From NCBI GenBank assembly GCA_041664625.1, contig JBAYKK010000001.1:1956-65955 (forward strand): a DNA stretch of 64,000 nucleotides. The letters run 5' to 3'. The position numbers and the translations under genes were made by a program. The stretch is from Minisyncoccota bacterium. GTDB lineage: Bacteria; Patescibacteriota; Minisyncoccia; Phycocordibacterales; WO2-35-19. Of the stretch, positions 3,105 through 52,669 are shown one piece after another. The notes below the pieces were generated by a model. That model saw nothing but the letters and a program-made list of their open reading frames with translations. It made no database searches and was not told where the DNA came from. Numbering within the stretch: position 1 is the first letter of the stretch; every line of letters begins with the position of its first letter.

Positions 3105-3255
3105 GCTTACTCCTTCTGCTTCCTATTATACCATATACACAATTTCTGTCAACTTGACTGTGGATAGCAAAAAATCTTGCTTTTTGACAGTTTTTCATTA
3201 GTATTGTTCTCGGAAGTCTTTTAGAGACTTGATCTTTGTTAGGGAGAAAAAAGTT

Positions 3256-37340: not shown

Positions 37341-38562
37341 AACGTCGAATGATGAGGTCGCAAAATGTCGGGTCGAGTTCGACCAAAAACGCTCGCCGCT
37401 TTAACTGCTCTGCCGCAATTAAGGTACTGCCACTGCCACCGAAGAGATCGAGGATAATTTCGCCGGGAGCAGAGCATCTTTTTATTGGTTTCTCATTTAA
37501 GGTAATTGGCTTTTGAGTTGGATGCTCGTAATCAGCAGAGTTGTCTCTCTTTACCAGCCAGAGTTGGACAATGCTCATGAGATCATCGTATAGGCCGATT
37601 GAGTTCACTTCTTTGTTTAGAACTTCGGATAGATTTTTAAGAGCCGGATTCAGAGAGGGAGTGCCTCGAGTGCCGTAAATGCAGGGCTCGATGACTTTGT
37701 TAAAAGCTACTTGTGGTGTTGGGTCAAAGTTATTTTTAACCCAAAAACAAATTCGGCGGTTGGTGACTTTATTCTGCCCGTAAAGTTGCTGGATTAGCCA
37801 GACATATTTTTCGTCACACCAGTAGAAGAGGTGGACATCGGGGTGGCTTACTGCTAGAGCATTTTGTATCGACTGTTCCAAAAATGTCTCGTACTCCTTG
37901 GCACTCTTGCTGTCATTCACCATTTTTTCAGGCGTATATTTTCCTTTGGAGCCAATGCCTTTTCTATAGTCCAAACCAATGTTATATGGTGGATCGCAGT
38001 ACACCATATTGGCTTTGTGCTCTCCCATGAGCTTCTGCACATTTTTCAAATCAAGGCAGTCTCCACAAAGAAGTCTGTGGTCTCCAAGTTCATACAGGTC
38101 GCCTGGCTTGCTTTCAGGAGTGACAATTTTTTCGAGTTCCTCTGCAACATTAAAATCGTCGTCTGTTATATCTAACACATCATCAAAAAATCCGTTAAGC
38201 TCGTCGGGAGTGAAGCCGACATCAAGGAGAAGGCCGGTATCAAAAGCTCTTAAAAGTTCCTCATCCCAGCTGCCCAAATTTTTGTTGAGCCGTAGGTTTA
38301 ACTCCTGCTCTCGCTCAAGCTCTGGAATAATGAGGTATACAACAGGCACTTCTGTAAAGCCCATCATTTTGGCGACCTTAAGGCGAAGGTGACCACCGAT
38401 CAGGATATTTTTTCTTTCTGGCGCACCATTCACTATTAGGGGATCGCATAGGCCAAATCGCTTTATACTCTCGGTCATATCGGCGATTGTTTTCTCATTC
38501 CATTTTCTGGGATTGTAGACCGAGGGTTTTAATTCACTCACTTTAACTTGTTCTATTTTCAT
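37300..38562 (-). CDS. ParB-like nuclease domain fused to a DNA methyltransferase.
   Basis: N-terminal ParB/Srx fold ('IGGHLRL'), then 'DPPYNIGLDY' and 'LDLFGGSGST'. Confidence 0.8.
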   Translation of the reverse strand: MKIEQVKVSELKPSVYNPRKWNEKTIADMTESIKRFGLCDPLIVNGAPERKNILIGGHLRLKVAKMMGFTEVPVVYLIIPELEREQELNLRLNKNLGSWDEELLRAFDTGLLLDVGFTPDELNGFFDDVLDITDDDFNVAEELEKIVTPESKPGDLYELGDHRLLCGDCLDLKNVQKLMGEHKANMVYCDPPYNIGLDYRKGIGSKGKYTPEKMVNDSKSAKEYETFLEQSIQNALAVSHPDVHLFYWCDEKYVWLIQQLYGQNKVTNRRICFWVKNNFDPTPQVAFNKVIEPCIYGTRGTPSLNPALKNLSEVLNKEVNSIGLYDDLMSIVQLWLVKRDNSADYEHPTQKPITLNEKPIKRCSAPGEIILDLFGGSGSTLIAAEQLKRRAFLVELDPTFCDLIIRRYEHFTGNHAKKLN

Positions 38563-38638
38563 AAAATTGGGTTAATTTTTAATTGTTTCTTTAATAATGC
38601 TTACTTGCGACATATAGTAACTATTTTAGGCAAAAAAA

Positions 38639-39172
38639 TTAGAATGATATCCCGGGCATCATGCGGAAGGGTAAATCGAGGTGTTCAAGCTGAATCCTGG
38701 CTACTGGTTTGGACACTCGGAACAATTTGGCGATGTCTTCAACAAATGGAAATGGTTCGTATTGATACACGTTTCTAACTGCCGGTTCCGGCATCAAAAT
38801 ATCCCCGGCAAAGCGGTCGCAGAGTCTCTCTACCCAACTATCATTGTCATCGGAATGGTACATTATGGCTGGTTCATTTGGAACGAGTACAATGTGAGCC
38901 AGTTCATGAGCGGCGGAGAATCTTTGCCTGACGATGCTTTCGTTTCCGTTAAGTATGATGAACCAACCTCTCTCCATGTCTCGGGTAGAGAAGGCGGAGA
39001 CTCCTTTCTCGAATGGAAAATCGGTCCTCGAGTGAACTTCTGCATCGCCCAAGTACTTGGTTATAACCTCCTTGATCACCACCGGAAGATTCAAAGATTC
39101 GCCATATACCTCTTTCAGTATCGCGTTGGCTTTATATTTAGAAACGTTTTTCCATTGCTCCGGGATCTCCAT
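38639..39172 (-). CDS. ImmA/IrrE-family metallopeptidase.
   Basis: 'AAHELAHIVL' HExxH motif in the DUF955 context. Confidence 0.7.
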   Translation of the reverse strand: MEIPEQWKNVSKYKANAILKEVYGESLNLPVVIKEVITKYLGDAEVHSRTDFPFEKGVSAFSTRDMERGWFIILNGNESIVRQRFSAAHELAHIVLVPNEPAIMYHSDDNDSWVERLCDRFAGDILMPEPAVRNVYQYEPFPFVEDIAKLFRVSKPVARIQLEHLDLPFRMMPGISF

Positions 39173-39178
39173 TGTCTT

Positions 39179-39520
39179 TTACTTAACTTTTAATTCCTTC
39201 TTGAGGTAGCCGATATAGTTTTCCACCATTTTCGACTGCTCCTCATTGAAGTTGTATTTGGCTCGGAGGAAGGTCGGGGTATCGGCCGATTTGATATAAT
39301 CCTCTTGAGTGATGCCCGCTTTGTTCAAAATGAATTCAAGCGGCTCACTTAACCCATCAGCTATTTTTCTTAATGTACTTACCGAGGGTGACTCATCTGG
39401 GTACTCACCTTGCTCTAAGCGGGAAATGTAGCCTCTGGTTAAACCAGAATTTTCGGCCAATTTCTCCTGCGTTAGTTCCTTATCCTCGCGCAAACTTTTT
39501 ATGACCTCAGCTAATTTCAT
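39179..39520 (-). CDS. XRE-family helix-turn-helix transcriptional regulator.
   Basis: 'QEKLAENSGLTRGYISRLEQGE'. Confidence 0.8.
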   Translation of the reverse strand: MKLAEVIKSLREDKELTQEKLAENSGLTRGYISRLEQGEYPDESPSVSTLRKIADGLSEPLEFILNKAGITQEDYIKSADTPTFLRAKYNFNEEQSKMVENYIGYLKKELKVK

Positions 39521-39849
39521 ATTTTTTCCTATTATTACTTTTCTATTCTAAGTCGACTGGAGATAGTATAGCATAAGTCGCTAAGATGTGAAGTATAGTT
39601 ACTATAAAAGTTGTGGATAACTGATTGTTTTTCATATCACAAAACAGAATTTAGCATTTGTCCAGAAAACCCAAAAGAATTTTGGCCTGTGCCAAAGTAC
39701 CTTTATTTTGCTTCATTTTCCGAATTTACTCTTTCACAGATTTGGCATTGTTTGGGTTTTCAAGACCCCGACCCGAACACTTCAATTCCACTTCTGGAAA
39801 TGTGCTAAAATACCCTTATGGTTACTAACCTAATGGGTACTTAACCCGA

Positions 39850-39925
39850 ATACACCGCCTTCGGTCCGCAGTAGCAGACCTTCGGCGTGACGAAGTCCGC
39901 CAGAAGGGGTGCGAAGGCGACCTTA
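39850..39925 (+). other. GC-rich multi-stem element directly upstream of the GIY-YIG gene.
   Basis: CGCCTTCG at 39861 pairs with CGAAGGCG at 39912, and an inner hairpin GACCTTCG-gcgtga-CGAAGTC sits between them. Confidence 0.35.
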
Positions 39926-39931
39926 GCCAAA

Positions 39932-40165
39932 ATGAATTACGTATACTCACTAAAATGCAAAGACGGCTTCTACATAGGATGTACTAATGATTTGAAAGAC
40001 AGAATCAAAAGACACGAAGCAGGACAGGTTGGTGCAACAAAAGATAGATTGCCTATTGAATTAGATTTTTATATAGCTCTTGATAATCAATACAAGGCCT
40101 TCAACTTCGAAAAATATTTGAAATCTGGTTCGGGTAGGACTTTTATAAAAAAGCATTTTGTTTAA
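39932..40165 (+). CDS. GIY-YIG nuclease-family protein.
   Basis: 'YVYSLKCKDGFYIGCTNDLKDRIKRH'. Confidence 0.7.
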   Translation: MNYVYSLKCKDGFYIGCTNDLKDRIKRHEAGQVGATKDRLPIELDFYIALDNQYKAFNFEKYLKSGSGRTFIKKHFV

Positions 40166-40250
40166 AAAACATAAAATTATGATTCCAATTTTGATGTAAA
40201 AAAGAGCCGCCCAGAGAGCGACGGCTCTCCGAGGCGGCGTTTGTGAAGAA

Positions 40251-40943
40251 CTATTTCGGCGGATCGGGTGGAGGTGTCCACGACTTCGGACAATACAGTC
40301 CGGCCCTTAGTTTTGCGCTGGGCTTAAGCACTTCGTGGAACGCAATCATGTCGAACTTACCATAGCCCCAATGACGACGCACCACTTGGTACAATTGGCC
40401 GGTGTATTCAAAGGAAAGGTACCAATTGCGTAACCAAGTCGGCATCGAAACTTCGTGGGAGATGTCCTTCTGAAGAAAGAGAGCCAGGGGTTGGTTCATT
40501 TTCCAGAAGAAAAATCGGTCGGCATAAGGCGGAATCCAGTTAATCTCTGCGACATCAAGCTCTTCGGGAAGTCCGAGCGATGACTGGAATGAGCGAACGC
40601 TCTTACCAACATCGCAATGACCCCAATCAATGAGGTAGAGTTCGCCGACATACTCGATACCTTTCCCTTTAAGGTAAGCTGAGGTCTTGCGGTTGATATC
40701 GGTCTCCGAGAGTTTAAGCGACAGCAACTGCTGAAGCTGCTCCGGCTCTGGGAGAGTGTTTTGTTTCGGTATGGCAGCAAGTAGCCGGTTCTCCTTGAAA
40801 AACTGGAGAGAAGAAAGAAGGGCATGCACTTGTTGAGGTGAACGCTCTCCTCTCTCAACGAAACCAACGGCTTGTGCGTAAAGACTGGCCAGATTCGCCA
40901 GCTCCTTGTTCCTCTCAAGTCTGGTATTTGCAGACATTGTCAA
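40251..40943 (-). CDS. Hypothetical protein in a GC-rich islet.
   Basis: ORF with clearly elevated GC. Confidence 0.4.
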   Translation of the reverse strand: MTMSANTRLERNKELANLASLYAQAVGFVERGERSPQQVHALLSSLQFFKENRLLAAIPKQNTLPEPEQLQQLLSLKLSETDINRKTSAYLKGKGIEYVGELYLIDWGHCDVGKSVRSFQSSLGLPEELDVAEINWIPPYADRFFFWKMNQPLALFLQKDISHEVSMPTWLRNWYLSFEYTGQLYQVVRRHWGYGKFDMIAFHEVLKPSAKLRAGLYCPKSWTPPPDPPK

Positions 40944-41139
40944 AGTCCTTTCAATGAATTTTCTCTTTGCAGTGTTAGTGCAACGAGTGTCCCCAGACGA
41001 ACCTGCTTGGTATTCGCAAACAGATTTTAATCGTTTTGGGTAAGGTTAGTCTAAATATATTTAATCATAATGTAAGTAATTTAGCAAATTGACGAATATC
41101 TCATAGTATGTTATCTTTTGCACAGGAAAGGAGGCTAGT

Positions 41140-42000
41140 GTGCACGGAAAAAACATTGCTCGCGGTTTGTTGGGAGCAGTAGGTATCTGGCTCACAGCCG
41201 GTCTCGCTCTCCCATTCGTCAATGTTTTGAAGTCTTTTACTCCCGAGCAGCTCATGTTTGCTCGCGGAATAATGACAGCCATCTTCGCGATTCTCATCAT
41301 GAGAGGAAAAGTGTTTCCGATTGATCGGTACACTCTCCTTTCAGGAGTCGGATTTGCATTCGGTTGCTTAGGACTGTACCACGGCATCCGAGAACTTGGA
41401 CCGAGCTTGGCGATCATCATTATCACCACCGCCCCAGTAGTTAATTTCTTGTTCGCTTGGGGCAGAGGCCGGCATGTTTCTTTTGCTGCCATCGGTAGTT
41501 TGGTGATCATGCTTGCAGGAGTAGTGTTTGCTCTCCATCCGTGGAATAGCACGACAACCCTCACGTTCAAAGGAGTGGCTTGGAGCATTTTCGGAGCAAC
41601 TTCCGGAGCGCTGTATTATGAAGCACTGTCCAAAGCCAAAGGAAGTCGCTTAACTCGCTGCTTCTGGCAAGCTTTGGTGGTAGCTCTAATTGCGATCTCG
41701 GGAAATATGGTTACAGGATCTGTAGTCCATATCCCTGAATTCAAAACCATGCTTCTCCTGGTCGCCTTCGCTCTCATGGGTGGTTTCTTGTACTTTATCG
41801 CCAACATCGAAGCTTTCGACAACCTGCCGACTGAAGTTGCAAGTGTGCTCGCTCAGGGAGAAACTCCGGCAGTCATTATCATGGCCGGGGTACTTCTCGG
41901 AGAGAAGCTCAGTTTGTCTCAATGGCTCGGGGTCGGAATTGCTCTTCTTGGTGCAGGATATCTCTCTCGCTGGATTTCTAACCAGCAAAAGGTCTCGTGA
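41140..42000 (+). CDS. EamA/DMT-family transporter.
   Basis: Ten TM helices with an internal duplication. GC-rich. Confidence 0.65.
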   Translation: MHGKNIARGLLGAVGIWLTAGLALPFVNVLKSFTPEQLMFARGIMTAIFAILIMRGKVFPIDRYTLLSGVGFAFGCLGLYHGIRELGPSLAIIIITTAPVVNFLFAWGRGRHVSFAAIGSLVIMLAGVVFALHPWNSTTTLTFKGVAWSIFGATSGALYYEALSKAKGSRLTRCFWQALVVALIAISGNMVTGSVVHIPEFKTMLLLVAFALMGGFLYFIANIEAFDNLPTEVASVLAQGETPAVIIMAGVLLGEKLSLSQWLGVGIALLGAGYLSRWISNQQKVS

Positions 42001-42087
42001 TACGCGTCACGGGACCTGCTTTTTTATTAATTTTCGATCTTGACTACCCCTAAAGTTTGAATCGCCAAAACATCGTCAAATAAATTA

Positions 42088-42120
42088 GCTTTATTTTTAT
42101 CCAAATTTCAATTAAACTGG
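42088..42120 (+). promoter_or_regulatory. Conserved upstream motif GCTTTATTTTTATCCAAATTTCAATTAAACTGG, copy 1.
   Basis: Near-identical 33-mer at 45407-45438. Confidence 0.5.
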
Positions 42121-42125
42121 TAATA

Positions 42126-42659
42126 ATGAAATTCGTAATTGGCTCGGGAAGTAAAAGAAAAATTGATATTGCTGAAAAAGTAATAAAGCAGTTTTTTAAT
42201 GGAGAGATTTCAATTGATAGTTTTGGAGCCAAATCCCAAATGCCAGACATCCCGTGGGACAAACAAACTTTTGATGGAGCAAGAAATAGAGCTTTGGACA
42301 GCAAATCTAATATAGCCGAAGGAGATTATTATATCGGTTTAGAAAGTGGTCTCATTGAGCGTTATGGGCATATTTATGAGGAGGCTTGGGCAGTTGTCGT
42401 TACTAAAGATGATACAGAATATAACGGCTACTCCAGTGGCCTCAAAGTCCCAGATTTTATACTCAAAAAGATGGATGAGCTCAAAATGGAACATTCTGAT
42501 GTTATGACTATCATTGAAAAAGAATACGGCAAGTTACCTAATGATACTTGGGGTACATATTCTGGCGGAACGATTTTACGAGAAGTGAGTCTGGAAGAAG
42601 CTCTGCGAAATGTTTTTATTCAAATCACTGCCCCAGAAAACAGTTTTTACAAAAAATAA
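42126..42659 (+). CDS. Non-canonical purine NTP phosphatase (YjjX/DUF84-like inosine/xanthosine triphosphatase).
   Basis: 'GARNRA', 'IGLESG' and an overall YjjX-like pattern. Confidence 0.5.
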   Translation: MKFVIGSGSKRKIDIAEKVIKQFFNGEISIDSFGAKSQMPDIPWDKQTFDGARNRALDSKSNIAEGDYYIGLESGLIERYGHIYEEAWAVVVTKDDTEYNGYSSGLKVPDFILKKMDELKMEHSDVMTIIEKEYGKLPNDTWGTYSGGTILREVSLEEALRNVFIQITAPENSFYKK

Positions 42660-42660
42660 T

Positions 42661-43260
42661 ATGGAAAATATAAATAATAATTGGACTGTATTACTTATTG
42701 GCGGTAGTTCTGGATTGGGCAAAACATATCTTGCTCAACAAATTGCGGAAAGGTATCGCATATCGCATATGGAAGCCGATGACCTTCGGGTGGCATTGAG
42801 AACAGTTACTAACCGAGAAGCACATCCTGAACTTTTTACATTCGTTGACCATCAAAATTATCTTGAAGAATTTGCGGAGGAGGAATTTGTAGAAAAGCAC
42901 ATTGCTGTTGGAGAAACCATTTGGCTTGCCATCAACGACATCATAACGAAGCATATAGGATTTAATGAACGGCTAATAATAGACGGGGATAGCGTTATTC
43001 CAACTTCGCTCGCAAAGCGAGACCAAACAGGTATAAAATCTGTTTTCCTATACGATGACCTTGAAGGTATTCGAGAGAGACAGATTAAAAGAAATCGCAA
43101 TAAAAAACGAACTCCCGAAAAAATGGAAACTAACGCTCAGTTTTCTTTTGCTTACAGTGAAGCCATCCGAAAACAAGCAGAGGAGTGCGGACTTATCACC
43201 TGCAAAGTTTCTCCCATTGAAACCCTGTTTGACCGTGTGGTTGATATTATTGAGGAATAA
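42661..43260 (+). CDS. P-loop NTPase / kinase-like protein.
   Basis: Walker A 'GGSSGLGKT'. Confidence 0.45.
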   Translation: MENINNNWTVLLIGGSSGLGKTYLAQQIAERYRISHMEADDLRVALRTVTNREAHPELFTFVDHQNYLEEFAEEEFVEKHIAVGETIWLAINDIITKHIGFNERLIIDGDSVIPTSLAKRDQTGIKSVFLYDDLEGIRERQIKRNRNKKRTPEKMETNAQFSFAYSEAIRKQAEECGLITCKVSPIETLFDRVVDIIEE

Positions 43261-43285
43261 AAAAGAAGGTTTACTTTGAAATAAA

Positions 43286-44058
43286 ATGAAAATAATTTCT
43301 CTCAACATCTGGGATGCTCGTATATTTGAGCCGCTTATGGGTTTCTTTGAACACAACCAAGATATTGATATTTTTTGTTTGCAAGAAGTGTTTAATGGTA
43401 CAGAACCAGTTTTTTTAGGAGAGGAGAGAAAAGAGTAAACGGTTTTTCGGAGATTGCATCAAAACTACCAAACTATAATGGATTTTTTATACCAGCAGAG
43501 GAAGCTCTTGATGATGAACCTCCGAGAGGAATATCTGTTCCTTATGGATTAGCAATTTTTGTGAAGAAAAACATAAAAATACTTTCACACCACCACGACT
43601 ATATTTTTGGTACTGGTAACGAATCATTGAGTGATGACGCGAGAACTCATAAGAGATTAATACAGACCGTGTGCATTTCTCATAATGGCTCGCCTGTGGC
43701 TATTTCAAATGTTCACGGACTATGGAATGGGCAGGGAAAAACAGACACCACAGACAGAATTGAACAATCTAATAAAATAAAAACCCACATAAAAAAATTT
43801 GAGCACCCAGTAATACTTGTTGGGGATTTTAATCTTCTACCAGATACAGAAAGTTTGGCAATTATCAGACACGAAATGAGAGATTTGATTAAGGAATACA
43901 ATATAACTTCTACACGAAGCAAACTTTATACTAAACACGAAAAACCTGTGCTTTTTGCAGATTATATTTTTACTTCACCAGAAATTAAGGTGGATGACTT
44001 CAAAGTTTTGCCAGATGTCGTCTCGGACCATTTACCTTTGTTATTAGATTTTAGCTAG
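43286..44058 (+). pseudogene. Endonuclease/exonuclease/phosphatase (EEP)-family gene interrupted by a -1 frameshift at a T7 run near 43410-43418.
   Basis: N-terminal 'ICLQEV' runs 43286-43438 and the rest, through the C-terminal 'SDHLP', continues from ~43396 in another frame. Confidence 0.5.
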
Positions 44059-44199
44059 TTACTAAGTGTTCACAATGTTGAATTTGGTGTAATCTGAAAG
44101 CATTAACGAGGTTCTCACTTCGTCTAATACCCTCCGCAATGATCCGCAAGGATAGCTTTGAATAGCTATGATTTTGATTCTGTGGTTTAATATTCTTAT

Positions 44200-44271
44200 G
44201 ACAAGGTAGCTCATCGGTAGAGCACCGCTATCACATAGCGGAGGTAGTGGGTTCAATTCCTACCCTTGTTA
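44200..44271 (+). tRNA. tRNA-Val (anticodon CAC).
   Basis: Hand fold: acceptor GACAAGG/CCTTGTT with a G1-U72 pair, anticodon stem CCGCT/AGCGG with loop ATCACAT, and T-loop TTCAATT. Confidence 0.75.
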
Positions 44272-44273
44272 CT

Positions 44274-45368
44274 ATGTCCACAAGTGATTGGTATAACCAA
44301 ATAGAAACTTCAGTCGCAAATCTTACTTCAAAAGGATTATTAAACGCCCTTGAGAAATTTGACGGCAAAGACAAGGAGGTTTTATCCAATCTTTTCATTA
44401 AGAAAATAGAGAAAAATAAAAATTTTAGACCCTTAGTTTTTTATATTGGATACTGTCTCGCAAAAGGTAAATTCATTCCGATTGATAGTTTATCTGATGA
44501 GGAAAAATCTATTATAGGTGATGTTACGGCTTCAATAGAAGCGGAAAACATATCCACATATTATGTTAACCACTATATTGACCAGAAAGGTGATATTAAA
44601 GACAAGCAGGACGAGAAAAACAGGGTGCTGGCGGGTATTTTGAGCAATACTATTGCACAGAACGTAATTGAGAATACAAGTCTTAGTCTTGATATAAAAG
44701 CTGAACTGATACGTTTGATAAACCAGATTGATATGGACATAGCAAAAGCACAAATCTACGAAGTAAATGTGGGTCTTTTTAGTAACCTTGAGGATTTCAA
44801 AAACGAGGAGGACTTTTTGAAAATTTATTTTGAAAGATGCAGAAAAATAAGTGGGCAGTTCTATGGTCGTTCAGCAGAAATGGGCTACATTGTCGGCTCC
44901 AGAAATATAAAAGAAACGAACGACAGAAAAAAAATAGAACAGTTTTATACTGAAATGGTAACGCTTCTTCAATATGCAAATGATATTGGAGATTACGCTC
45001 TCCCTAATATGCATTCTGGAACAGCAGAGAAGAATTTTTATAAGGATTATGGTAGTGATTTCAAGAATCAACGGTTAACATATCCGAATTATTTACTCCT
45101 AAAAAGAGTGGAGGATTTGAACGATAAAGAATTAATAAAGAGCATTCTTTCAGAAGGTTTTGACACACACAGGATGAAAGATTTTATGGCACTGATGAAT
45201 AAATTGGAAATATTCAAAGATTGTTTCAGTCTACTTAATTCAAAATTTAACCAAGAAAAGAAGAAGCTCTGGTTACGGAACTCTGAATTGAGGAAGCTTA
45301 TTTCAAGTTCCGTCATCATTATAAGGTCAAACAAATTATTAACCTCAATAAAGAAAGTTATGGTCTAA
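44274..45368 (+). CDS. Hypothetical protein starting 3 nt after the tRNA.
   Basis: AT-rich ORF. Confidence 0.4.
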   Translation: MSTSDWYNQIETSVANLTSKGLLNALEKFDGKDKEVLSNLFIKKIEKNKNFRPLVFYIGYCLAKGKFIPIDSLSDEEKSIIGDVTASIEAENISTYYVNHYIDQKGDIKDKQDEKNRVLAGILSNTIAQNVIENTSLSLDIKAELIRLINQIDMDIAKAQIYEVNVGLFSNLEDFKNEEDFLKIYFERCRKISGQFYGRSAEMGYIVGSRNIKETNDRKKIEQFYTEMVTLLQYANDIGDYALPNMHSGTAEKNFYKDYGSDFKNQRLTYPNYLLLKRVEDLNDKELIKSILSEGFDTHRMKDFMALMNKLEIFKDCFSLLNSKFNQEKKKLWLRNSELRKLISSSVIIIRSNKLLTSIKKVMV

Positions 45369-45406
45369 TTGATTTTAGCAGTAGCAAACTGATTAAAAAT
45401 TACTGG

Positions 45407-45438
45407 CTTTATTTTTATCCAAGTTTCAATTAAACTGG
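45407..45438 (+). promoter_or_regulatory. Conserved upstream motif, copy 2 (GGCTTTATTTTTATCCAAGTTTCAATTAAACTGG).
   Basis: Matches 42088-42120. Confidence 0.5.
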
Positions 45439-45442
45439 GGGT

Positions 45443-45764
45443 ATGAAGATTGTTAAATTTAGACCACATTTAACCTCTGATATTATCCGGAGAGAAAAAT
45501 TCTACTTGGAGATTATTTGATGATAAAGATTTATCTTTAAATGACGAGTTTATTATTCAAGAATGGGGTACGGGGGAAAATTTCGGTAAGGCGTTGATAA
45601 TTAAAGTTGAAGAAAAGAAACTTAAAGATTTGCAAGATAGTGATTTTGAAGGGCATGAGAAATATGAGAGTGAAGAAAAAATGTATGAGAATTACAGGAA
45701 ATATTATGGAGACAAAGTGACCCCCGACACTGTTGTAAAAATGATCGATTTTAAACTTAATTAG
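45443..45764 (+). pseudogene. ASCH-domain protein gene with a single-nucleotide frameshift near 45472-45476 (a C-run).
   Basis: Frame 0 reads 'MKIVKFRPHLT' to a stop at 45518. Frame +1 then reads 'PLILSGEKNSTWRLFDDKDL...' to 45764. Confidence 0.5.
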
Positions 45765-45882
45765 TAGTAGAAAATAATTTTCTAACGAATTACTTCTTTT
45801 CAAAAAAATCTTTTTTGGATTTTTGGGTAAATAGAAAGAGGGCGGCCGCTTGGGTCGCCCCCATAAGGATGCGGAGTTTTTC

Positions 45883-46338
45883 TCAATTTTCGCAGATCGA
45901 ACATCGCGCTGGAATGAGAACTTGTACCACCCGCACCTCAGCATCATCCGGAATCTCAATGTCGTTTCGAAGGTGTACCGACTCCGGCGGTAGCGACCCG
46001 AATGTGCACCCATTGAGCAACTTCACACACCCTCGAAGTGTCTGGTCTGATGGGTTGCTGAGTGCCGGATAGGCTAGGGTCTGCCCGATAAATACTCCAT
46101 TTTTGTAGAAATGGAGCAAAAACATGAAGCTGTTGACCTCGGCCTCCAACGGGCTTCTATCCGGTTGAACCTCTTTTTTAATCTCGGTCGTGGCATCGAT
46201 GAAGGCCGCTATCACGATCCAGCCCACAAAAAACAACATAATCTCGAGCCACATTTTAGTGGGAGAAAACATCGTAAAAGTGTAGCGTCCCACCATGAAG
46301 GCGAGAGCTATGAGCAAAGAAACCGCAGCAGTGTTCAC
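45883..46338 (-). CDS. Hypothetical membrane-anchored protein, GC-rich.
   Basis: GTG start with RBS AAGGAG and two N-terminal TM helices. Confidence 0.45.
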   Translation of the reverse strand: MNTAAVSLLIALAFMVGRYTFTMFSPTKMWLEIMLFFVGWIVIAAFIDATTEIKKEVQPDRSPLEAEVNSFMFLLHFYKNGVFIGQTLAYPALSNPSDQTLRGCVKLLNGCTFGSLPPESVHLRNDIEIPDDAEVRVVQVLIPARCSICEN

Positions 46339-46450
46339 ATCAAACTCCTTTTAATCTGTGTATAAGTATATCAAACTACGCATACAAAGTCAATGATTGT
46401 AAAGTAGTAGAGAGAATAAACTCATAGCGGAGCTTTTAAAAGCAATAAAC

Positions 46451-47650
46451 TTATTTCAAAGCCAAAAATGCGTTGACGTAATGGATAGCGATACCGCCAA
46501 AATTTGGATTAGAATTAAAAGCTTTGTTTATTTTACTGATTTGACCAGAGAGATAGTTTTTGGAAGTCCTGTGGAAAGTGATGTATGGAGGCATCACATC
46601 GCCAGTCTCTTGAGCGATGACCACTTGAGTATTGTATTTGCCATTTTTTGCAGTTTGCATTTCATTATTGGAAATTTCTATAGACCCGTCATAACCTTCG
46701 GCAAAACTTCGATAAGACATAATAATGATAGAGCTATCGGGCTTCCTGTCCAAAATGTTTAGCAGATGTTTGAATGTGTAATCTTTTTTGCCGTTGTATG
46801 CAATTTTGGGAGTCATTTGGTCTTCTTTGTCATAAAAATCCGGTATAACTATGCTGAATTTCAATGAGCTGTCTTGCATGAAATTTTCAGTTTGGTCAAT
46901 CAATTGGATGAAATTTTTTAGAACAACGCTTTTATTTTTTTCGTAAGAAGCCAAGAGATAAGGTTCTACATCGTATTGAAAGCCTCTGAATTTATTGGCT
47001 CTAGTGTTATTGAAATTTTTGACATAATTTACGATAGCAAAAGCTTTGTAAGTGTTGCCTTCTTCAGCCCAATTTTGCCAACCTGCTTCAGCATCTACTG
47101 CTATGCCCCTACTATTTGCAGAAACGATGAAGTTTTCTAATTTATCCGAGAATGCCTTTTTGGCTTGTTCTCTTTTTTCACCTTTGGGCATTACAAATAC
47201 GTCGAGGTAGGTATCAATAGAAATGTATATGGTGTTTACCCTGTTAACTTGGGCTTGAGAAAGGGTCGACTCGATATATTCTGGGGTCATGATCATGATA
47301 GGTGTCCAGATCCAAATGCCATGTTCTTTTGTATTTTGTTTGGGTTCAGTTGGATTAGTACCCAAAGTTTTGATGCTTTTGATTACGCTAGCAATTTGAT
47401 TGGTAAAAAAATAAGACTTTTTTTGAGGTACTGCGTCAAAAGTGATTTTTTGAAATTCGGGATTAGAGGCGATAGCGTTTGGAGTTATGATTTTGTTTGA
47501 ATATTGCGATATTTGAGTGTCTATCGGATTGCGATGGGGGATATACTCTGTTTTTATGATCGAAGCAAACATCATAATACCTATACCTAGTATCACACAT
47601 CCTAGGAACATATTTCTTTTGGTTGTTTTGTTTTGCTTTTTATTTTTCAC
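46451..47650 (-). CDS. Hypothetical membrane-anchored extracytoplasmic protein.
   Basis: TM anchor plus a ~360 aa domain. Confidence 0.45.
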   Translation of the reverse strand: MKNKKQNKTTKRNMFLGCVILGIGIMMFASIIKTEYIPHRNPIDTQISQYSNKIITPNAIASNPEFQKITFDAVPQKKSYFFTNQIASVIKSIKTLGTNPTEPKQNTKEHGIWIWTPIMIMTPEYIESTLSQAQVNRVNTIYISIDTYLDVFVMPKGEKREQAKKAFSDKLENFIVSANSRGIAVDAEAGWQNWAEEGNTYKAFAIVNYVKNFNNTRANKFRGFQYDVEPYLLASYEKNKSVVLKNFIQLIDQTENFMQDSSLKFSIVIPDFYDKEDQMTPKIAYNGKKDYTFKHLLNILDRKPDSSIIIMSYRSFAEGYDGSIEISNNEMQTAKNGKYNTQVVIAQETGDVMPPYITFHRTSKNYLSGQISKINKAFNSNPNFGGIAIHYVNAFLALK

Positions 47651-47717
47651 TTTTAATTATTATAACACTGTTTGAAAAATAAAAAATTTCTGCTATATTT
47701 ACGATGTTCCATAACAT

Positions 47718-47793
47718 GCGCGGTTAGCTCAGTTGGTAGAGCGCGTCATTGACGTTGACGATGTCAGAGGTTCGAGCCCTCTATCGCGCACCA
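47718..47793 (+). tRNA. tRNA-Val (anticodon GAC) with CCA encoded.
   Basis: Hand fold: acceptor GCGCGGT/ATCGCGC, D-arm GCTC..GAGC, anticodon stem CGTCA/TGACG with loop TTGACGT, and T-arm AGAGG-TTCGAGC-CCTCT. Confidence 0.9.
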
Positions 47794-47890
47794 GACAAAA
47801 TATCTCCACTTTTATTTTAAGATTTTTCGGTTTACAGATATTATATAGTATGTTTATATATGTTAGTAAAAGTTCTTGAAAGGAGTCAGT

Positions 47891-48256
47891 ATGGCCGTTA
47901 AAGTTTTGGTGGTGGAAGACGAAGAGGACTTCCACAGATTATGGAAGGAAGAGGTAGGGAACAACGTGGAAATTCTCAGTGCCTATAGCATTCAGGATGC
48001 TATAGCTCTGTTCAATTCCAATCCGGACATATCCATGATAGTCATGGACGCATGTGTACCTGGGAACCAACAAAATACAGCCCCTTTAGTAAAGTGGCTG
48101 AGGGAAAAATTCAAGGGCCCACTCATTGCAACCTCGAGCGTGCCCTGTTTCAGGGTCGAACTCCTGAAGGCTGGATGCAGTCATGAGTCCCAGAAGCGAC
48201 ACGTACCCAAGAAGGTGCTGGAACTTCTGGAATCTGGAATTGTGTCCGGGCATTGA
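47891..48256 (+). CDS. Stand-alone response-regulator receiver domain (CheY-like).
   Basis: 'KVLVVEDEED' with a phospho-acceptor Asp in the 'IVMDACVPG' context. Confidence 0.55.
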   Translation: MAVKVLVVEDEEDFHRLWKEEVGNNVEILSAYSIQDAIALFNSNPDISMIVMDACVPGNQQNTAPLVKWLREKFKGPLIATSSVPCFRVELLKAGCSHESQKRHVPKKVLELLESGIVSGH

Positions 48257-48344
48257 GTGAGGTCTGCCCATCAGGGCCAGTCTGCGATAACATCAATGGC
48301 TGGCTCTTTCTTTTTGTTTAATTCACATTTTTTAAATACAAAAT

Positions 48345-48378
48345 AGCCGCAGGGGTGCGTGGAGCGCCCCTGCGGCTG
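48345..48378 (-). terminator. Hairpin with an 11 bp stem AGCCGCAGGGG...CCCCTGCGGCT downstream of the PEP-CTERM gene.
   Basis: Read directly. Confidence 0.5.
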
Positions 48379-48388
48379 TTGTGGAGCG

Positions 48389-49072
48389 TTAGCTCCTACT
48401 GTTGCGTTGACGACGGGCGATAAGCCCGACGAGAAAAAGTCCGAGAGTCGCCGTGCCGTAGGTGGCCGGTTCGGGCACCTGACTGCCCGTGACCTGCAGC
48501 TCACTGGCGATCCCGTTGGAGTCGCCAAAGAGCTGGAATGAAGTTATTTTCAGAACGTTCGTTCCAGACTGGAACCATGCCGGGTTCAGGGAACCCGAGA
48601 ACATGGTGCTGGAAACGCATCCTGGCGTCCCCAACACGCAGTGTTCAGCCGGGTTGGTGTCCGTCGGTGAGACGGCCAGTTGCCCGTTCAGGGTGGCCGA
48701 AGCGGTGTCGTCGGCCAGAAGCTTCAATGTTGCCGATGTGACCATGAAGCCAGCCGGCAGAGTGAAGGTTTGGGTGAACTCCTGCACGGTCCCGTTGGGG
48801 ACCTGGAAGTATTCCGCGTTGTGAGCACCAGACTGCCAATGGGAGATCCACGGCACTCCGGGCATCGAATACCACGCCGAGTTGGCCGGAATGGCCAGAA
48901 CCGAACCGTCGCCCTTGTCGACCCAGATTGAGTCATCGGCAGTGTTTGTGGCCGAAGAATGCGACTGGAAAGTCAGGGTAGTGACGGGTGTCGCGCCGGC
49001 CGTGATGGCCAACACGAAAATCAAAAAAGCTGCCGTAAGGTAGCCGTTGTACTTCACTTCTTTTTCCTCCAA
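48389..49072 (-). CDS. Secreted PEP-CTERM sorting-domain protein. GC content is very high (~55-60%).
   Basis: N-terminal signal peptide. C-terminus reads 'VPEPATYGTATLGLFLVGLIARRQRNSRS' (PEP + TM helix + Arg cluster). Confidence 0.7.
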   Translation of the reverse strand: MEEKEVKYNGYLTAAFLIFVLAITAGATPVTTLTFQSHSSATNTADDSIWVDKGDGSVLAIPANSAWYSMPGVPWISHWQSGAHNAEYFQVPNGTVQEFTQTFTLPAGFMVTSATLKLLADDTASATLNGQLAVSPTDTNPAEHCVLGTPGCVSSTMFSGSLNPAWFQSGTNVLKITSFQLFGDSNGIASELQVTGSQVPEPATYGTATLGLFLVGLIARRQRNSRS

Positions 49073-49219
49073 AGATCAATTTTTGGGTTACCTCAGGGGC
49101 AACCTCTAGAACTGCTTATATAGTAAACAAATATAAAAGATTTGTCAATAAAGTATATCCTAATCTATATTTGGGTGTTCGAGATCTTTATTATGCACCG
49201 GTATTACACCAAAATATAC

Positions 49220-49247
49220 TTGACAAGTATTGGGGTGGGCGTAAAAT
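49220..49247 (+). promoter_or_regulatory. Sigma-70-like promoter: TTGACA, a 16 nt spacer, then TAAAAT.
   Basis: Read directly upstream of the large surface-protein gene. Confidence 0.4.
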
Positions 49248-49303
49248 CTCTAACATAGTGTTAGGTGCTAGGAATTTATTAAGTGTTTATTAATTTTAAT
49301 ACT

Positions 49304-52300
49304 ATGAAAAACAAATATTTTGAAGCCGGGCTTTCAAAATTAGCCTTGGCATTTTTGGCGTTGATAATAGCGCTACCGATGACATTTATGCCGTCAGTGG
49401 CAAATGCGATTAGTCCTACAACTATTTTTTCTGATGGATTTGAAGCCCCAACTGGTGTAGGTAATTGGATAGAATCTGGGTGGAGTTCAAGTAGTGACGG
49501 TCATGGTGTTGGTAAATCAGCAAAATTGGTTGGAGCAGAAAATGCCCAGACAATGCAAAAAAATATATCAACATCAGGTTATGAAAATATCTCTTTGAGT
49601 TTCTGGTATAAGGCATATGATCTTGATACTTCTGGTCATCTTGACAAGGTTGAGGTATTTTACACACTAGATGGTTCTAGCTGGGTTGAAGTGTCTGGCG
49701 CTCAAATTGATGACAATGATGATGATAATAATTGGCACCAATTTTCTTTCTCTAGTTTTCCATCTGGAGCAAACAATAATCTAAATTTTGGCGTAAAATT
49801 TGATGGGGATTTGAATTCTGATAATGATAAAGTTTGGGTGGATGACGTTTCTTTAACTGGCGCCTCAATTCCAGTTCCTGTAAACGGTGGTTGGTCAGAG
49901 TGGTCTCCATCTTCTTGCCCAACAGCTCCGGGTTCTCCCGAATCTCAGTTGGTACGTACATGCACAAATCCAACTCCCGCTAATGGGGGCAGAGAGTGTC
50001 AAGGAGAAGCTACTCAAGTCTGTGCTGCTGTGCCAGCTGATACAGATCAGGATGGTGTGCCAGATTATACAGACAATTGCCCTTCAACAGCAAATTCTAA
50101 TCAAGAAGACAGAGACGGTGATGGTGTAGGCGATGCTTGTGATAACTGCATATCAAACGCAAACGCTAATCAGGCCGATGAAAATCAAAATGGTGTAGGT
50201 GATATTTGTGAGGTTCCAGATGAACCAACAACAGGAACAATTAAAATTACAAAATATGCATGTCCTGCAGATACTTCTGTAGTTAGATCTGCAAATGGTG
50301 TTGAGGGAACAGTTCCTCCTTTGTGTGAACTTCAATCAGGAGCAACATTTGGATTTGTCCACGGCACACAAACAGATGCAAATGCTCCATATCCGGAATT
50401 GACTGCGAATCTTACTGCGGGCGGTACAACTGATGGTAGTGGTGTATTAAATATTACTGATTTACCAGCAGATGGGAGATATTTGGTAGTAGAAACCGAT
50501 GGTAATAATACAAAAATCCCGGATGGAGATATTTTAGGACTATATTGTGTAGGAGATGGTGATACGTCAAATAATAATGATAACCAAGAGCTAACTTTTG
50601 TTTCTGCGGGTGGTACAGTAAATTGTGTTGCTTATAACAAAGCTAAAGAAGTGCCTGCACCTGTCTGTGATCCAGAAAAAAATCTTATTGCAAATGGTGG
50701 TTTTGAGAATCCACTTGTTGAGACCCCAGAAAAATGGAATACGTTTGCTTCTGGATTTACTGGTCTTGAGTGGATTGTAAATTGGTTAAATCCTGATGGG
50801 GCACCAACGGTTGCAAATCTAGAACTTCATAAAACTGGTATCATATCAGGATGGAATGCTCTAGAAGGTGTTCAATATGCAGAATTAGATACCGATTTTG
50901 GAGCACCTCCATCAAATCCAGGTGGAGCGGCTTCCGTTTCTATCGCACAAGAAATACAAACTATTCCAGGCAAAAATTACAAACTTACTTTTGATTTTTC
51001 ACCACGACCAAATAGAGATACAACAGAAAATGTTTTAGGAGTATTTTGGGGTGGAGAGCAGGTACCAGGTAGCCCAGTTTCAGCTGCTGGCAATGGTACT
51101 AATAATGTTTGGGCACCTTATACTTTCAATTTTTCCGCGACAACCTCTCTTACAACCTTGATGTTTAAAGATTTGGGTATTTCTAATTCAGAAGGAACAT
51201 TTTTGGATAATGTCAGTTTGACTTGCCAAAACGAAGCAGAAGATCCTTGTACTTATTTTGATGAAGTTGTCGTTTCTGATGAGACCAATATGGTTGGCGA
51301 AAATCCTGCTCAATTGACGTGGACTCATGAATTATGGGTCTCTACTACTACTTCCGCCAAATGGATATGGAGTGATGCCACAGTTCAAAATCCTACCCAA
51401 TACGAGGTAAAAACATTTACCAAAACTTTCACTTTGAACGGTAATCCGACATCTGATGCTCTGCTTTCTATCGCTTCTGACAATACATACAAAGTGCTCG
51501 TAAATGGTAATGAAATTGCTTCTACCACCAATGAAGCAAATTATGCAGCCTTTACTGATTATGTAGTCCCTGCGTCTGCTCTGATTTATGGTGAAAATAC
51601 GATTACTGTCGAAGTCCACAATTGGGCATTAGAAGGAGCTACTCCAGAGACCAACCCAGCCGGAGTTATTTATGCACTTTATGTCAATACCAAAAACTGC
51701 CCTGGTGACAATCCTCAAGAACCGGACAAATTACAGGTGAAGATATACAAATATCTTGATGGTGTTCAGGCGACGGCTCAATCTGTAAACAATTACGAAT
51801 TCCCAATGCATGCGGTTTGGAGTTGGCCAGCAAGTGAACAACTTCAAGGAAGTGAAGGGGCTGGTGATTATTTGTTGGGGCTCAGCGGCCATGGTGGCTC
51901 AGGTTCTTATGAAGCTTTCACTTCGACTATGAACGCGCCTGCCATATATCAAACCTACGAAAGGACTAGTGATATGTATGCGGAAAGTAATGTATTGCCG
52001 ATAGATAGCCAGTGTGTTGAGGGTAAATATAGATTGAAGGGTTACAGATGGGGAAATTCTCCAACTGAAGCGCAATCGGCCTCACTTTCTACGACTTATC
52101 CTGACTTCACCAATTTGACAGCTGATAAGTATGTAATCGTTGAGAACGAAACCTGTCCTGAGGTTATTGAGCCTCTACGATGTGAACAGGGATATCATGA
52201 AGAGGAAAACGTGTGTGTACTAGATGAAAGAGAAGAACAACAACAAGATCCAGCTCCAACCATAACTCAAACCTCTGGTGGTAGAAGACATGATGTGAGC

Positions 52301-52669
52301 GGTTTATTCGGAGGAGGATCAGTTTTGGGAGCTTCAACTGAAGGCAGTTTGTTATGCGAACCATATTTAAAAGATTATATTAAATTTGGAGGCAATAATA
52401 ATTCAGAAGAAGTCAAAAAACTTCAAATATTCCTAAATCAATTCTTTGAGACCAATAATCCGGTTACTGGATTTTACGGCCAGATCACTTATGATATGGT
52501 GAAAAAATTCCAGGCCCATCAAGAAGCAGGCACTCTCACTCCTTGGGCTTCTGCAGGAGTACCAACAGATGGACCAACAGGTTATGTTTATAAAACCACC
52601 AAGAGATGGATAAATATCTTGAAGTGTCCTGATATGATCGCAAGTACTCCTGTTCCACAACTTCCATAA
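49304..52669 (+). CDS. Large secreted surface protein with a TSP1-like repeat, thrombospondin type-3 (Ca-binding) repeats and a C-terminal PG_binding_1 domain.
   Basis: Signal peptide. 'WSEWSPSSC....C' (TSP1-like), 'DTDQDGVPDYTDNC...DRDGDGVGDACDNC' (TSP3) and 'LQIFLNQ...GFYGQITYDMVKKFQ' (peptidoglycan-binding). Confidence 0.7.
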   Translation: MKNKYFEAGLSKLALAFLALIIALPMTFMPSVANAISPTTIFSDGFEAPTGVGNWIESGWSSSSDGHGVGKSAKLVGAENAQTMQKNISTSGYENISLSFWYKAYDLDTSGHLDKVEVFYTLDGSSWVEVSGAQIDDNDDDNNWHQFSFSSFPSGANNNLNFGVKFDGDLNSDNDKVWVDDVSLTGASIPVPVNGGWSEWSPSSCPTAPGSPESQLVRTCTNPTPANGGRECQGEATQVCAAVPADTDQDGVPDYTDNCPSTANSNQEDRDGDGVGDACDNCISNANANQADENQNGVGDICEVPDEPTTGTIKITKYACPADTSVVRSANGVEGTVPPLCELQSGATFGFVHGTQTDANAPYPELTANLTAGGTTDGSGVLNITDLPADGRYLVVETDGNNTKIPDGDILGLYCVGDGDTSNNNDNQELTFVSAGGTVNCVAYNKAKEVPAPVCDPEKNLIANGGFENPLVETPEKWNTFASGFTGLEWIVNWLNPDGAPTVANLELHKTGIISGWNALEGVQYAELDTDFGAPPSNPGGAASVSIAQEIQTIPGKNYKLTFDFSPRPNRDTTENVLGVFWGGEQVPGSPVSAAGNGTNNVWAPYTFNFSATTSLTTLMFKDLGISNSEGTFLDNVSLTCQNEAEDPCTYFDEVVVSDETNMVGENPAQLTWTHELWVSTTTSAKWIWSDATVQNPTQYEVKTFTKTFTLNGNPTSDALLSIASDNTYKVLVNGNEIASTTNEANYAAFTDYVVPASALIYGENTITVEVHNWALEGATPETNPAGVIYALYVNTKNCPGDNPQEPDKLQVKIYKYLDGVQATAQSVNNYEFPMHAVWSWPASEQLQGSEGAGDYLLGLSGHGGSGSYEAFTSTMNAPAIYQTYERTSDMYAESNVLPIDSQCVEGKYRLKGYRWGNSPTEAQSASLSTTYPDFTNLTADKYVIVENETCPEVIEPLRCEQGYHEEENVCVLDEREEQQQDPAPTITQTSGGRRHDVSGLFGGGSVLGASTEGSLLCEPYLKDYIKFGGNNNSEEVKKLQIFLNQFFETNNPVTGFYGQITYDMVKKFQAHQEAGTLTPWASAGVPTDGPTGYVYKTTKRWINILKCPDMIASTPVPQLP

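Follow-up and report, generated by a model that had tools for sequence, protein, structure and literature searches.

A GC-rich two-gene islet encoding a receiver and a PEP-CTERM protein at a variable surface-protein site beside tRNA-Val(GAC) in a Paceibacterota genome

Introduction

How does a GC-rich gene for a PEP-CTERM protein come to lie beside a tRNA gene in the AT-rich, reduced genome of a member of the Candidate Phyla Radiation (CPR)? We examined this question in a 64,000-nt stretch, here called the window, of contig JBAYKK010000001.1 from a Minisyncoccota bacterium (assembly GCA_041664625.1), where tRNA-Val(GAC) is followed by an islet of two genes. PEP-CTERM proteins are regarded as exosortase substrates in diderm, exopolysaccharide-producing bacteria. 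CPR bacteria are not known to have an outer membrane, and no exosortase is known from them. An earlier reading made from the letters alone (the sequence-only reading) took the islet for a recent horizontal transfer at a tRNA hotspot, pointed to exopolysaccharide-producing Gram-negative bacteria, and raised the concern of a chimeric assembly. Our results favor a swappable surface-protein site in groundwater Paceibacterota, with cargo exchanged by gene transfer, probably mostly among Patescibacteria. We give this reading a probability of about 0.5.

A GC-rich islet at the 3' end of tRNA-Val(GAC)

Beside tRNA-Val(GAC), a variable surface-protein site holds a genuine islet of two genes, which extends from about 47794 to 49199. 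The tRNA gene (47718-47793, plus strand), which forms the left anchor of the site, was detected by ARAGORN and by Rfam (tRNA, 63.9 bits) and was the only Rfam detection in 46000-50000. The islet contains two open reading frames (ORFs) and no others: a gene for a 121-aa CheY-like single-domain receiver (47891-48256, plus strand) and, convergent with it, the gene for a 222-aa PEP-CTERM protein (48389-49057, minus strand; ORF list, Pfam and family alignment). ARAGORN, Rfam, the GC profile, Pfam and structural models thus confirmed the arrangement described by the sequence-only reading. The downstream neighbor (49304-52669, plus strand) encodes a 1121-aa surface protein with thrombospondin-3 repeats and choice-of-anchor C/DUF642 and peptidoglycan-binding domains.

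Measured over 100 nt, GC content was 0.27-0.38 directly 3' of the tRNA, 0.44-0.55 in the receiver ORF, 0.54-0.64 in the PEP-CTERM ORF and 0.29-0.35 past 49060. The receiver gene has a GC content of 0.49 and a GC content at third codon positions (GC3) of 0.56. The PEP-CTERM gene has values of 0.59 (0.589) and 0.72, the latter being the highest GC3 of the 61 ORFs in the window; the window as a whole has a GC content of 0.40, and most other ORFs have a GC3 of 0.3-0.45. Among 627 overlapping 1300-nt segments, those over the islet ranked as the most extreme by GC (z=3.7) as well as by tetranucleotide distance (z=5.1), and elsewhere no 669-nt segment exceeded a GC content of 0.52, compared with 0.589 for the PEP-CTERM gene. 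These comparisons with the 64-kb window bear out the claim of foreign composition in an AT-rich CPR genome. The excess was limited to the two ORFs and the hairpin between them: the 100 nt upstream of each gene had a GC content of 0.26-0.31, the leader of about 100 nt that follows tRNA-Val had 0.27, and GC3 was high along both ORFs from the first through the last codons.

An abrupt change in composition is also what an assembly or binning artefact would produce, if a GC-rich contaminant fragment had been fused with a CPR contig where a conserved tRNA lies. Two short-read contigs (L106 and L107) do break inside the tRNA at 47762/47763, and one of the two starts with 25 nt from the anticodon arm of another tRNA-Val(GAC). 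However, the islet proteins are recorded by NCBI, JGI, ENA and Logan, NCBI labeling the source a Candidatus Paceibacterota metagenome-assembled genome (MAG). A 28.5-kb JGI contig corresponds to window 38389-51150 with one mismatch, and an 80,451-bp ENA contig and two Logan contigs from other runs were 100% identical over the islet. The islet sequence therefore agreed at 100% in four assemblies from four samples and three pipelines. Both junctions were spanned by the long ENA and JGI contigs, and the junction between the PEP-CTERM gene and the large surface-protein gene was spanned by all four. The islet leader, promoter regions and flanks are as AT-rich as the host, and relatives hold analogous GC-rich PEP-CTERM genes inside CPR contigs. 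With four identical assemblies and two long contigs across both junctions, the concern about chimerism did not hold up: such an artefact is very unlikely and effectively excluded.

Of the breaking contigs, L106 (Logan, SRR18595301) is 100% identical to window 47763-51135, and its first 25 nt, set against window 47738-47762, form a different tRNA-Val(GAC) anticodon arm in which the changes are internally compensated. L107 begins at 47762. There are two readings of the start of L106: the same downstream DNA may occur in the population with another upstream context, or the assembly graph (k=31) may have created the difference, the stretch shared within the tRNA measuring exactly 31 nt.

The tRNA-Val site in related genomes

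Relatives were found with the neighboring 399-aa protein as query against JGI and ENA metagenome contigs, which gave 12 loci at 42-65% identity. The DnaB proteins of these relatives were about 90% identical. tRNA-Val(GAC) lay beside the 399-aa gene at 9 of the 12 loci, and the order tRNA-Ser, 399-aa gene, tRNA-Val was conserved. A 171-kb Hainich groundwater contig (L017) has the same order as the window (FtsZ, TrxB, CAP, large protein, tRNA-Val, 399-aa protein) with only about 210 nt between the large-protein gene and tRNA-Val. This empty site supports the earlier claim that the position 3' of the tRNA is a variable hotspot.

At six loci on five distinct related contigs (L011/L012, L013, L014, L016 and L018) the tRNA-Val site holds a PEP-CTERM protein of the same family, here called type B, which is 210-213 aa long and 29-34% identical to the window protein by tblastn. 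Type-B proteins end in (V/I)PEP(A/S)T, a transmembrane segment and an Arg-rich cluster, and they keep the PEP motif while the remaining tail diverges. Their genes have a GC content of 0.54-0.56 and a GC3 of 0.60-0.62 on host contigs of GC 0.39-0.41. Gene orientation and partner gene differ between the window and these relatives.

L016 also carries a second, unrelated PEP-CTERM gene (ORF 5347; Pfam, 22.2 bits), placed and oriented like the window gene. The 5' regions of the two are colinear: 43 nt of the promoter region were 74% identical, the Shine-Dalgarno segment matched at 12/12 positions, and 47 nt of signal-peptide DNA were 79% identical (L016 5385-5430, E=4e-6 in this pairwise comparison; promoter and Shine-Dalgarno segments at window 49150-49108 and 49072-49061). 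The mature domains were 25% identical. A further PEP-CTERM gene was found in L010, where about 1.6 kb separate it from tRNA-Val. Conserved Paceibacterota hotspots are occupied by at least four distinct PEP-CTERM genes or families, namely a family resembling carbohydrate-binding modules (CBMs), with two subtypes, and three unrelated ones.

Because relatives show either an empty site or other GC-rich PEP-CTERM genes at this position, the tRNA-Val site is a long-standing variable locus whose usual cargo is a GC-rich PEP-CTERM gene. The hotspot and the PEP-CTERM theme are ancestral to this clade. What stands of the proposed recent horizontal transfer is therefore, most likely, horizontally exchanged cargo at a tRNA hotspot; a unique or demonstrably recent import does not stand, since six loci carry other PEP-CTERM genes. 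The O-antigen and capsule loci of Enterobacteria are hypervariable surface-antigen loci with persistently atypical GC. The tRNA-Val site resembles such loci in its fixed position, very divergent alleles, conserved flanks and composition that is atypical across lineages. It differs in that one protein gene, not a biosynthetic cluster, makes up the cargo, its GC is high rather than low, and an exchange mechanism is something we infer.

Two further features were seen at the related loci. In L018 (7403-7717), L010 (5998-6327) and L011 (7389-7667) a conserved ORF of about 100 aa, without a Pfam match, is located between tRNA-Val and the PEP-CTERM gene, in the place taken by the receiver in the window; the window does not have it. 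Past the type-B gene, L011 (1288-6060) and L018 (473-5866) carry an operon with a SipW-like signal peptidase and several secreted proteins with a common TasA/camelysin-type N-terminus (MKKIL...GATGAFFSDTETS), and this operon may encode a fiber or pilus-like surface system.

Probable source pool and GC anomaly

The four best homologues of the window protein (P0012, P0013, P0014 and P0018; identity 45-46% in one comparison, 42-46% in another) are all encoded between groEL and lemA, in a conserved context of RNase J, SBP_bac_5, secG, groES and groEL. GroEL of one such contig was closest (83-84%) to Candidatus Zambryskibacteria and other Paceibacterota MAGs, and the order secG-groESL-lemA is general among Paceibacterota; the four homologues are therefore Paceibacterota proteins too. 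The PEP-CTERM gene was found in none of the Patescibacteria groEL loci among the 80 loci returned, and its occurrence between groEL and lemA is thus sporadic. A second hotspot for PEP-CTERM genes, this one in another Paceibacterota lineage, is the groEL-lemA gap of L006, L007, L021 and L022; at some of these loci a further PEP-CTERM gene lies nearby.

In a neighbor-joining tree the window protein grouped with the groEL-linked copies. Type B fell in a different subclade, its nearest neighbors being unidentified metagenome proteins, and a Bryobacteraceae protein branched more distantly within the same wider group. By pairwise global identity the window protein was 42-45% identical to the groEL-linked copies and 28-38% identical to type B of its own relatives. 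Adjacent GroELs were 68-88% identical, compared with 33-46% for the neighboring PEP-CTERM proteins. Distant named members of the family belong to Acidobacteriota (Bryobacteraceae and Candidatus Acidiferrales).

Because the window protein is nearer to the groEL-linked copies, and because GroELs are so much more conserved than the PEP-CTERM proteins beside them, the pattern agrees better with replacement of alleles from a common pool than with vertical descent. This agrees with the report that most horizontal transfer into Patescibacteria comes from other Patescibacteria (PMC12455944). Judged by the closest homologues, the nearest source pool would be other Paceibacterota. Import from an exopolysaccharide-producing Gram-negative bacterium was accordingly not borne out.

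That import could also be framed as a single recent event: an element targeting the tRNA would have brought both genes from a GC-rich exopolysaccharide-producing Gram-negative, for example one of the Acidobacteriota, leaving the PEP-CTERM protein as an orphan substrate without an exosortase. We regard such an event as unlikely. Relatives already hold PEP-CTERM genes at the site, L016 has the same gene 5' region, and the closest homologues are from Paceibacterota and not Gram-negatives, with a best database identity of 46%. No integrase was found, and a GC anomaly shared by syntenic copies at 68-88% GroEL identity gives no sign of recency. These observations stand against the strongly foreign composition (GC3 0.72, tetranucleotide z=5.1), an islet that begins right at the tRNA end with a tRNA-3' repeat beyond it, the empty site of L017, the distant homologues from Bryobacteraceae and Candidatus Acidiferrales, and the absence of an exosortase from the 64-kb window, all of which count for a single import.

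The GC anomaly itself was not confined to the window. PEP-CTERM genes in the groEL-lemA gap had a GC3 of 0.60-0.68, and neighboring genes 0.19-0.59; all PEP-CTERM genes seen in CPR contigs were GC-rich (GC3 0.43-0.72, mostly 0.56-0.72; neighbors 0.19-0.59). Because the anomaly recurs in copies across lineages with 68-88% GroEL identity, whatever the GC3 of the host, it cannot date a transfer. More generally, a GC3 excess (0.6-0.7 versus 0.2-0.5) that recurs in syntenic copies of diverged lineages means that composition alone is no proof of recent transfer. Two causes are unlikely and were set aside: expression-linked codon bias, since the highly expressed GroEL is not GC3-rich, and regional GC-biased gene conversion, since the excess ends at ORF boundaries. 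The excess may reflect either repeated import of whole ORFs or codon-usage selection.

Codon-usage selection has a place in a further alternative, that of a native, vertically inherited surface gene that evolves very fast under diversifying selection, whose GC-rich codons are kept by selection or a locus bias and whose position beside the tRNA is incidental. Vertical inheritance would account for PEP-CTERM genes at the same site on five distinct related contigs (six loci), for a promoter and signal peptide common to the window and L016, for type-B copies that retain the PEP motif while the tail diverges, and for a GC3 of 0.60-0.72 in every CPR copy whatever the host GC3 (0.19-0.58), with an excess exactly bound to the ORFs. 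It is hard to reconcile with a window protein (subfamily A) whose identity to the groEL-linked copies (42-45%) exceeds that to type B from its own relatives (28-38%) and which falls in a separate subclade. Orientation and partner gene also differ between the window and its relatives, L017 is without any such gene, none of the Patescibacteria groEL loci examined has a member of the family, and GroEL, although highly expressed, is not GC3-rich. We consider a native gene improbable.

Possible traces of integration

A decayed direct copy of the tRNA-Val 3' end (GTTCGAGATCTTTATTATGCACC) lies at the right edge of the islet (49177-49199, plus strand), with 17/23 identity to the left copy at 47770-47792. 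All six mismatches are G/C to A/T. It was the sole match of at least 17/23 on either strand of the window (128 kb of sequence), and the chance of such a repeat landing in the gap of about 250 nt just past the islet was about 0.002. We therefore consider the repeat, with moderate confidence, a candidate scar of an old attachment site (attR-like).

The 3' part of the tRNA (47763-47793, plus strand), as defined by alignment of relatives, comprises the end of the variable loop, the T-arm and the 3' acceptor strand, and variation among relatives clusters in this part of tRNA-Val. At the distal ends of the type-B islets, matches of at least 17/23 reflected no more than a general resemblance of the T-arm to that of tRNA-Ser. 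In L010, where tRNA-Val is inverted, an inverted copy matching at 18/23 positions lies about 1.3 kb from that tRNA.

The islet resembles tRNA-linked islands in its start at a tRNA 3' end, its atypical composition, its absence from a syntenic relative and the putative, degenerate direct repeat that follows it. Unlike such islands, it spans only about 1.4 kb and two genes, has no integrase and has a repeat of only 17/23. In relatives, moreover, other cargo occupies the site, and some of the expression region looks native.

The PEP-CTERM protein and its fold

The PEP-CTERM gene likely starts at the GTG at 49057, 8 nt after GGAGG, instead of at the TTG at 49072, giving 222 aa. Residues 1-22 (...LAITAGA/TPV; 48992-49057, minus strand) form a predicted Sec-type signal peptide, modeled by AlphaFold2 as a helix at 3-19. 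The N-terminus (MKYNGYLTAAFLIFVLAITAGA/TPV) is hydrophobic, and homologues have the same pattern. A beta-sandwich domain of roughly 165-170 aa leads to the sorting/anchor tail (residues 193-222; 48392-48481, minus strand), which consists of VPEPATYG, a transmembrane helix and RRQRNSRS (Pfam match at residues 193-216, AlphaFold2 helix at 197-221). The Pfam PEP-CTERM score was 20.8 bits, just over the gathering cutoff of 20.7.

A word-indexed homology search with the protein returned only itself. A full HMMER scan of 1.8 billion representatives gave 258 homologues at E<1e-3, and among the best 150 listed, most were about 200-240 aa long and aligned over near-full length. No relative was found on viral contigs. 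In a 24-sequence alignment W62, D116, D117, C140, C147, Q175, G182 and P195-E196-P197 were invariant. The window protein has all of these residues and therefore looks intact. The earlier description of a secreted protein with a PEP-CTERM anchor agrees with the Pfam score and with the invariance of P-E-P in all 24 sequences.

AlphaFold2, run on the family alignment, gave a confident model (predicted local distance difference test, pLDDT, 91; predicted template-modeling score, pTM, 0.82) with a signal helix, a beta-sandwich and a C-terminal helix. The best Foldseek matches in the PDB were the carbohydrate-binding domains CBM35, MiXBM, PA14 and BcsB; they were weak but consistent. The likeness to CBM35/CBM6-like, PA14 and BcsB modules holds at the level of fold only, at 10-19% identity. 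BFVD gave weak matches to a mixture of phage and giant-virus proteins, of which a few carry a PA14 annotation. The globular part had no sequence match in Pfam, NCBIfam or the PDB, and the domain appears to represent an undescribed subfamily. Several NCBIfam PEP-CTERM subfamilies (FxDxF, NF038126; NF038129; THxN; PepA of Zoogloea, NF033554) showed weak similarity to the tail, that of FxDxF NF038126 spanning residues 80-217 at 25.1 bits; unlike true members, however, the window protein matched every one of them far under cutoff (for FxDxF, 25.1 versus 50).

The model suggests that the 222-aa product is likely a membrane-anchored, glycan-binding surface protein and probably acts as a surface glycan-binding adhesin. 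The protein would be exported by Sec and its signal peptide cut by an S26 signal peptidase. A disulfide-containing CBM35/PA14-like beta-sandwich would then be displayed outside the cell, most likely as an adhesin binding glycans of a host cell or matrix, held in the membrane by the PEP motif, transmembrane helix and Arg cluster. The window does encode an S26 signal peptidase and several Dsb/VKOR proteins.

Search for an exosortase

The tail would serve in addition as a cleavage and sorting signal if the genome encodes an exosortase-type enzyme. Pfam was run on 48 of the 61 window ORFs, including all but two of the membrane-rich ORFs from a hydrophobicity screen. No exosortase, sortase or histidine kinase was found among the ORFs scanned, nor any exopolysaccharide genes. 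Hydrophobicity screens combined with Pfam likewise found no exosortase among the polytopic ORFs of the fetched CPR loci. Polytopic candidates proved to be VKOR, M48, P-type ATPase, DsbD, EamA, YibE/F, DUF6159, TatC, LPG synthase transmembrane domain and DUF2207 proteins, and one ORF of 180 aa with four transmembrane segments had no Pfam match. Among the papers searched, none pairs an exosortase with Patescibacteria or Saccharibacteria; exosortase or PEP-CTERM terms co-occur with CPR terms only incidentally.

In its signal peptide, PEP motif, transmembrane helix and Arg-rich cluster the protein matches the PEP-CTERM/exosortase system (Haft et al. 2006; PF07589, TIGR02595). Unlike the typical system, it occurs in a CPR host, with one PEP-CTERM gene and neither an exosortase nor an exopolysaccharide locus in the 64-kb window. 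NCBI protein names and the GroEL of a homologue contig identify the host as Candidatus Paceibacterota, presumably not a diderm with an exopolysaccharide locus. One credible PEP-CTERM tail was present in the window; L016, L006 and L007 hold two each within a few kb.

Processing of the tail depends on an exosortase in the genome. If one is present, the range of PEP-CTERM sorting extends to CPR bacteria; if not, the tail lacks its enzyme and does no more than anchor the protein in the membrane. In both cases the proteins are candidate adhesins of ultra-small episymbionts, for which few attachment factors are known. A more speculative extension, which we hold as doubtful, is that some Paceibacterota run functional PEP-CTERM sorting through an unrecognized exosortase-type or analogous enzyme. 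Such a pathway would be fed by exchanged, hypervariable glycan-binding adhesins at the hotspots by tRNA-Val and in groEL-lemA, with GC-rich codon usage actively maintained. The strict retention of (V/I)PEP(A/S)T amid diverging tails would then reflect recognition by the enzyme.

Proposed exchange of cargo

In the swappable-site reading, the site would retain its own AT-rich promoter, Shine-Dalgarno sequence and signal-peptide DNA, and the cargo behind them would be swapped by horizontal transfer or recombination. The cargo would come from a pool of GC-rich PEP-CTERM genes circulating in Paceibacterota, with distant relatives in Acidobacteriota. Original entry was probably through the tRNA 3' end as an attachment site, which would have left a decayed repeat and no integrase.

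Several observations count against this reading. Uniformly high GC3, limited to ORFs with AT-rich flanks, is equally compatible with codon-usage selection. The databases hold no high-identity donor, the best match being 46%, and for this reason we infer, rather than observe, the direction and timing of transfer. The 5' region shared with L016 consists of short matches (47 nt at 79%, 43 nt at 74%). The tRNA-3' repeat, besides its shortness and decay, cannot be clearly recognized in relatives and has no comparable scar at the type-B loci. No integrase or recombinase lies in or beside the islet, the nearest serine recombinase being 29 kb off in another element. CBM matches are weak (E about 1e-4; TM score 0.3-0.5, up to 0.54 on the target), and the defining PEP-CTERM partner, exosortase, was found neither in the window nor among polytopic ORFs of the CPR loci.

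The receiver gene

The receiver scored 20.1 bits against Pfam Response_reg (PF00072), under the gathering cutoff of 30.2, and two of its homologues carry PF00072. Its AlphaFold2 model has a (beta-alpha)5 fold (pLDDT 88.5), and Foldseek gave TM scores of 0.78-0.81 to the receivers of VicR, YycF, ArcA, DivK and PhoB. Despite the sub-threshold Pfam score, fold and Foldseek matches agree with the earlier call of a stand-alone CheY-like receiver. D10, D53 and S82 were invariant in seven receiver homologues, and the K102 position was Lys in six of seven family members and Arg in the seventh. In the model these four positions fit the ends of beta1, beta3, beta4 and beta5. From the alignment, Asp53 is the likely phospho-acceptor.

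According to the model, the 121-aa gene encodes a bona fide single-domain receiver with no output domain, probably phosphorylatable and acting as an orphan adaptor of the CheY/DivK type. It is like CheY/DivK single-domain response regulators in its (beta-alpha)5 fold (TM score about 0.8), in having no output domain, and in its residues: an acidic pocket of E9/D10, Asp53 at the end of beta3, Ser82 after beta4 and Lys102 after beta5. Unlike those regulators, it falls below the Pfam gathering score and is part of a small, divergent family marked by an 'MDACVPG' motif, with seven members found; also, the 64-kb window has neither a histidine kinase nor a chemotaxis gene. No HisKA or HATPase_c domain was detected among the window ORFs scanned.

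The linkage of receiver and PEP-CTERM gene is particular to this genome. The closest receiver homologue (56% identity; L005 425-951) is also encoded directly 3' of a tRNA gene, tRNA-Tyr, on an AT-rich contig and with a native-looking composition (GC3 0.37). Another homologue matches the composition of its own contig, which has a GC content of 0.59.

Other features of the window

Within the islet, the receiver gene has an AT-rich leader (47817-47885, plus strand) with a promoter-like site at 47817-47844 and a possible AGGAG Shine-Dalgarno sequence at 47881-47885, both at the level of consensus. Putative expression signals of the PEP-CTERM gene (49061-49150, minus strand), found by scan, comprise GGAGG at 49070-49066 and a promoter-like TTGACA-17-TACTAT at 49148-49120. 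Between the convergent genes lies a GC-rich inverted repeat (48339-48383) with 20-nt arms, 85% complementary, and a 5-nt loop, followed on the minus strand by a T-rich run. A simple terminator scan did not call it, and from its sequence and position it is probably a bidirectional terminator hairpin shared by the two genes.

A 29.3-kb insertion occupies window 17164-46450 and separates tRNA-Ser(GGA) from the 399-aa gene; at eight related loci the two directly adjoin each other. It begins with a large serine recombinase (17276-18604) and carries a copper/redox set (P-type ATPase with HMBD, multicopper oxidase, DsbD, DsbA-like thioredoxins and AhpC/TSA), two N6/N4 DNA methylases, one of them fused to ParB_N, an HTH_3 and M78 (ImmA/IrrE-like) pair, EamA and a second tRNA-Val, with anticodon CAC. 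A control search found no att-like repeat of tRNA-Ser around this island. Similar serine-recombinase elements lie beside tRNA-Ser(GGA) in L021 and L010. The insertion contains further GC-rich ORFs at 40251-42000 and 45883-46338 (GC about 0.50, GC3 0.51-0.59), which encode a 230-aa protein without an assigned family, an EamA transporter and, at the right end of the element, a 151-aa product with no Pfam match.

The second most atypical patch of the window (3229-4554, GC 0.50) is an ORF of 441 aa in which the C-terminal half is an OMP decarboxylase domain and the N-terminal 200 aa had no match. At the left end of the window, 52-2826 encodes a 924-aa protein with HerA/DUF87 and TraG/TraD-like coupling-protein signatures.

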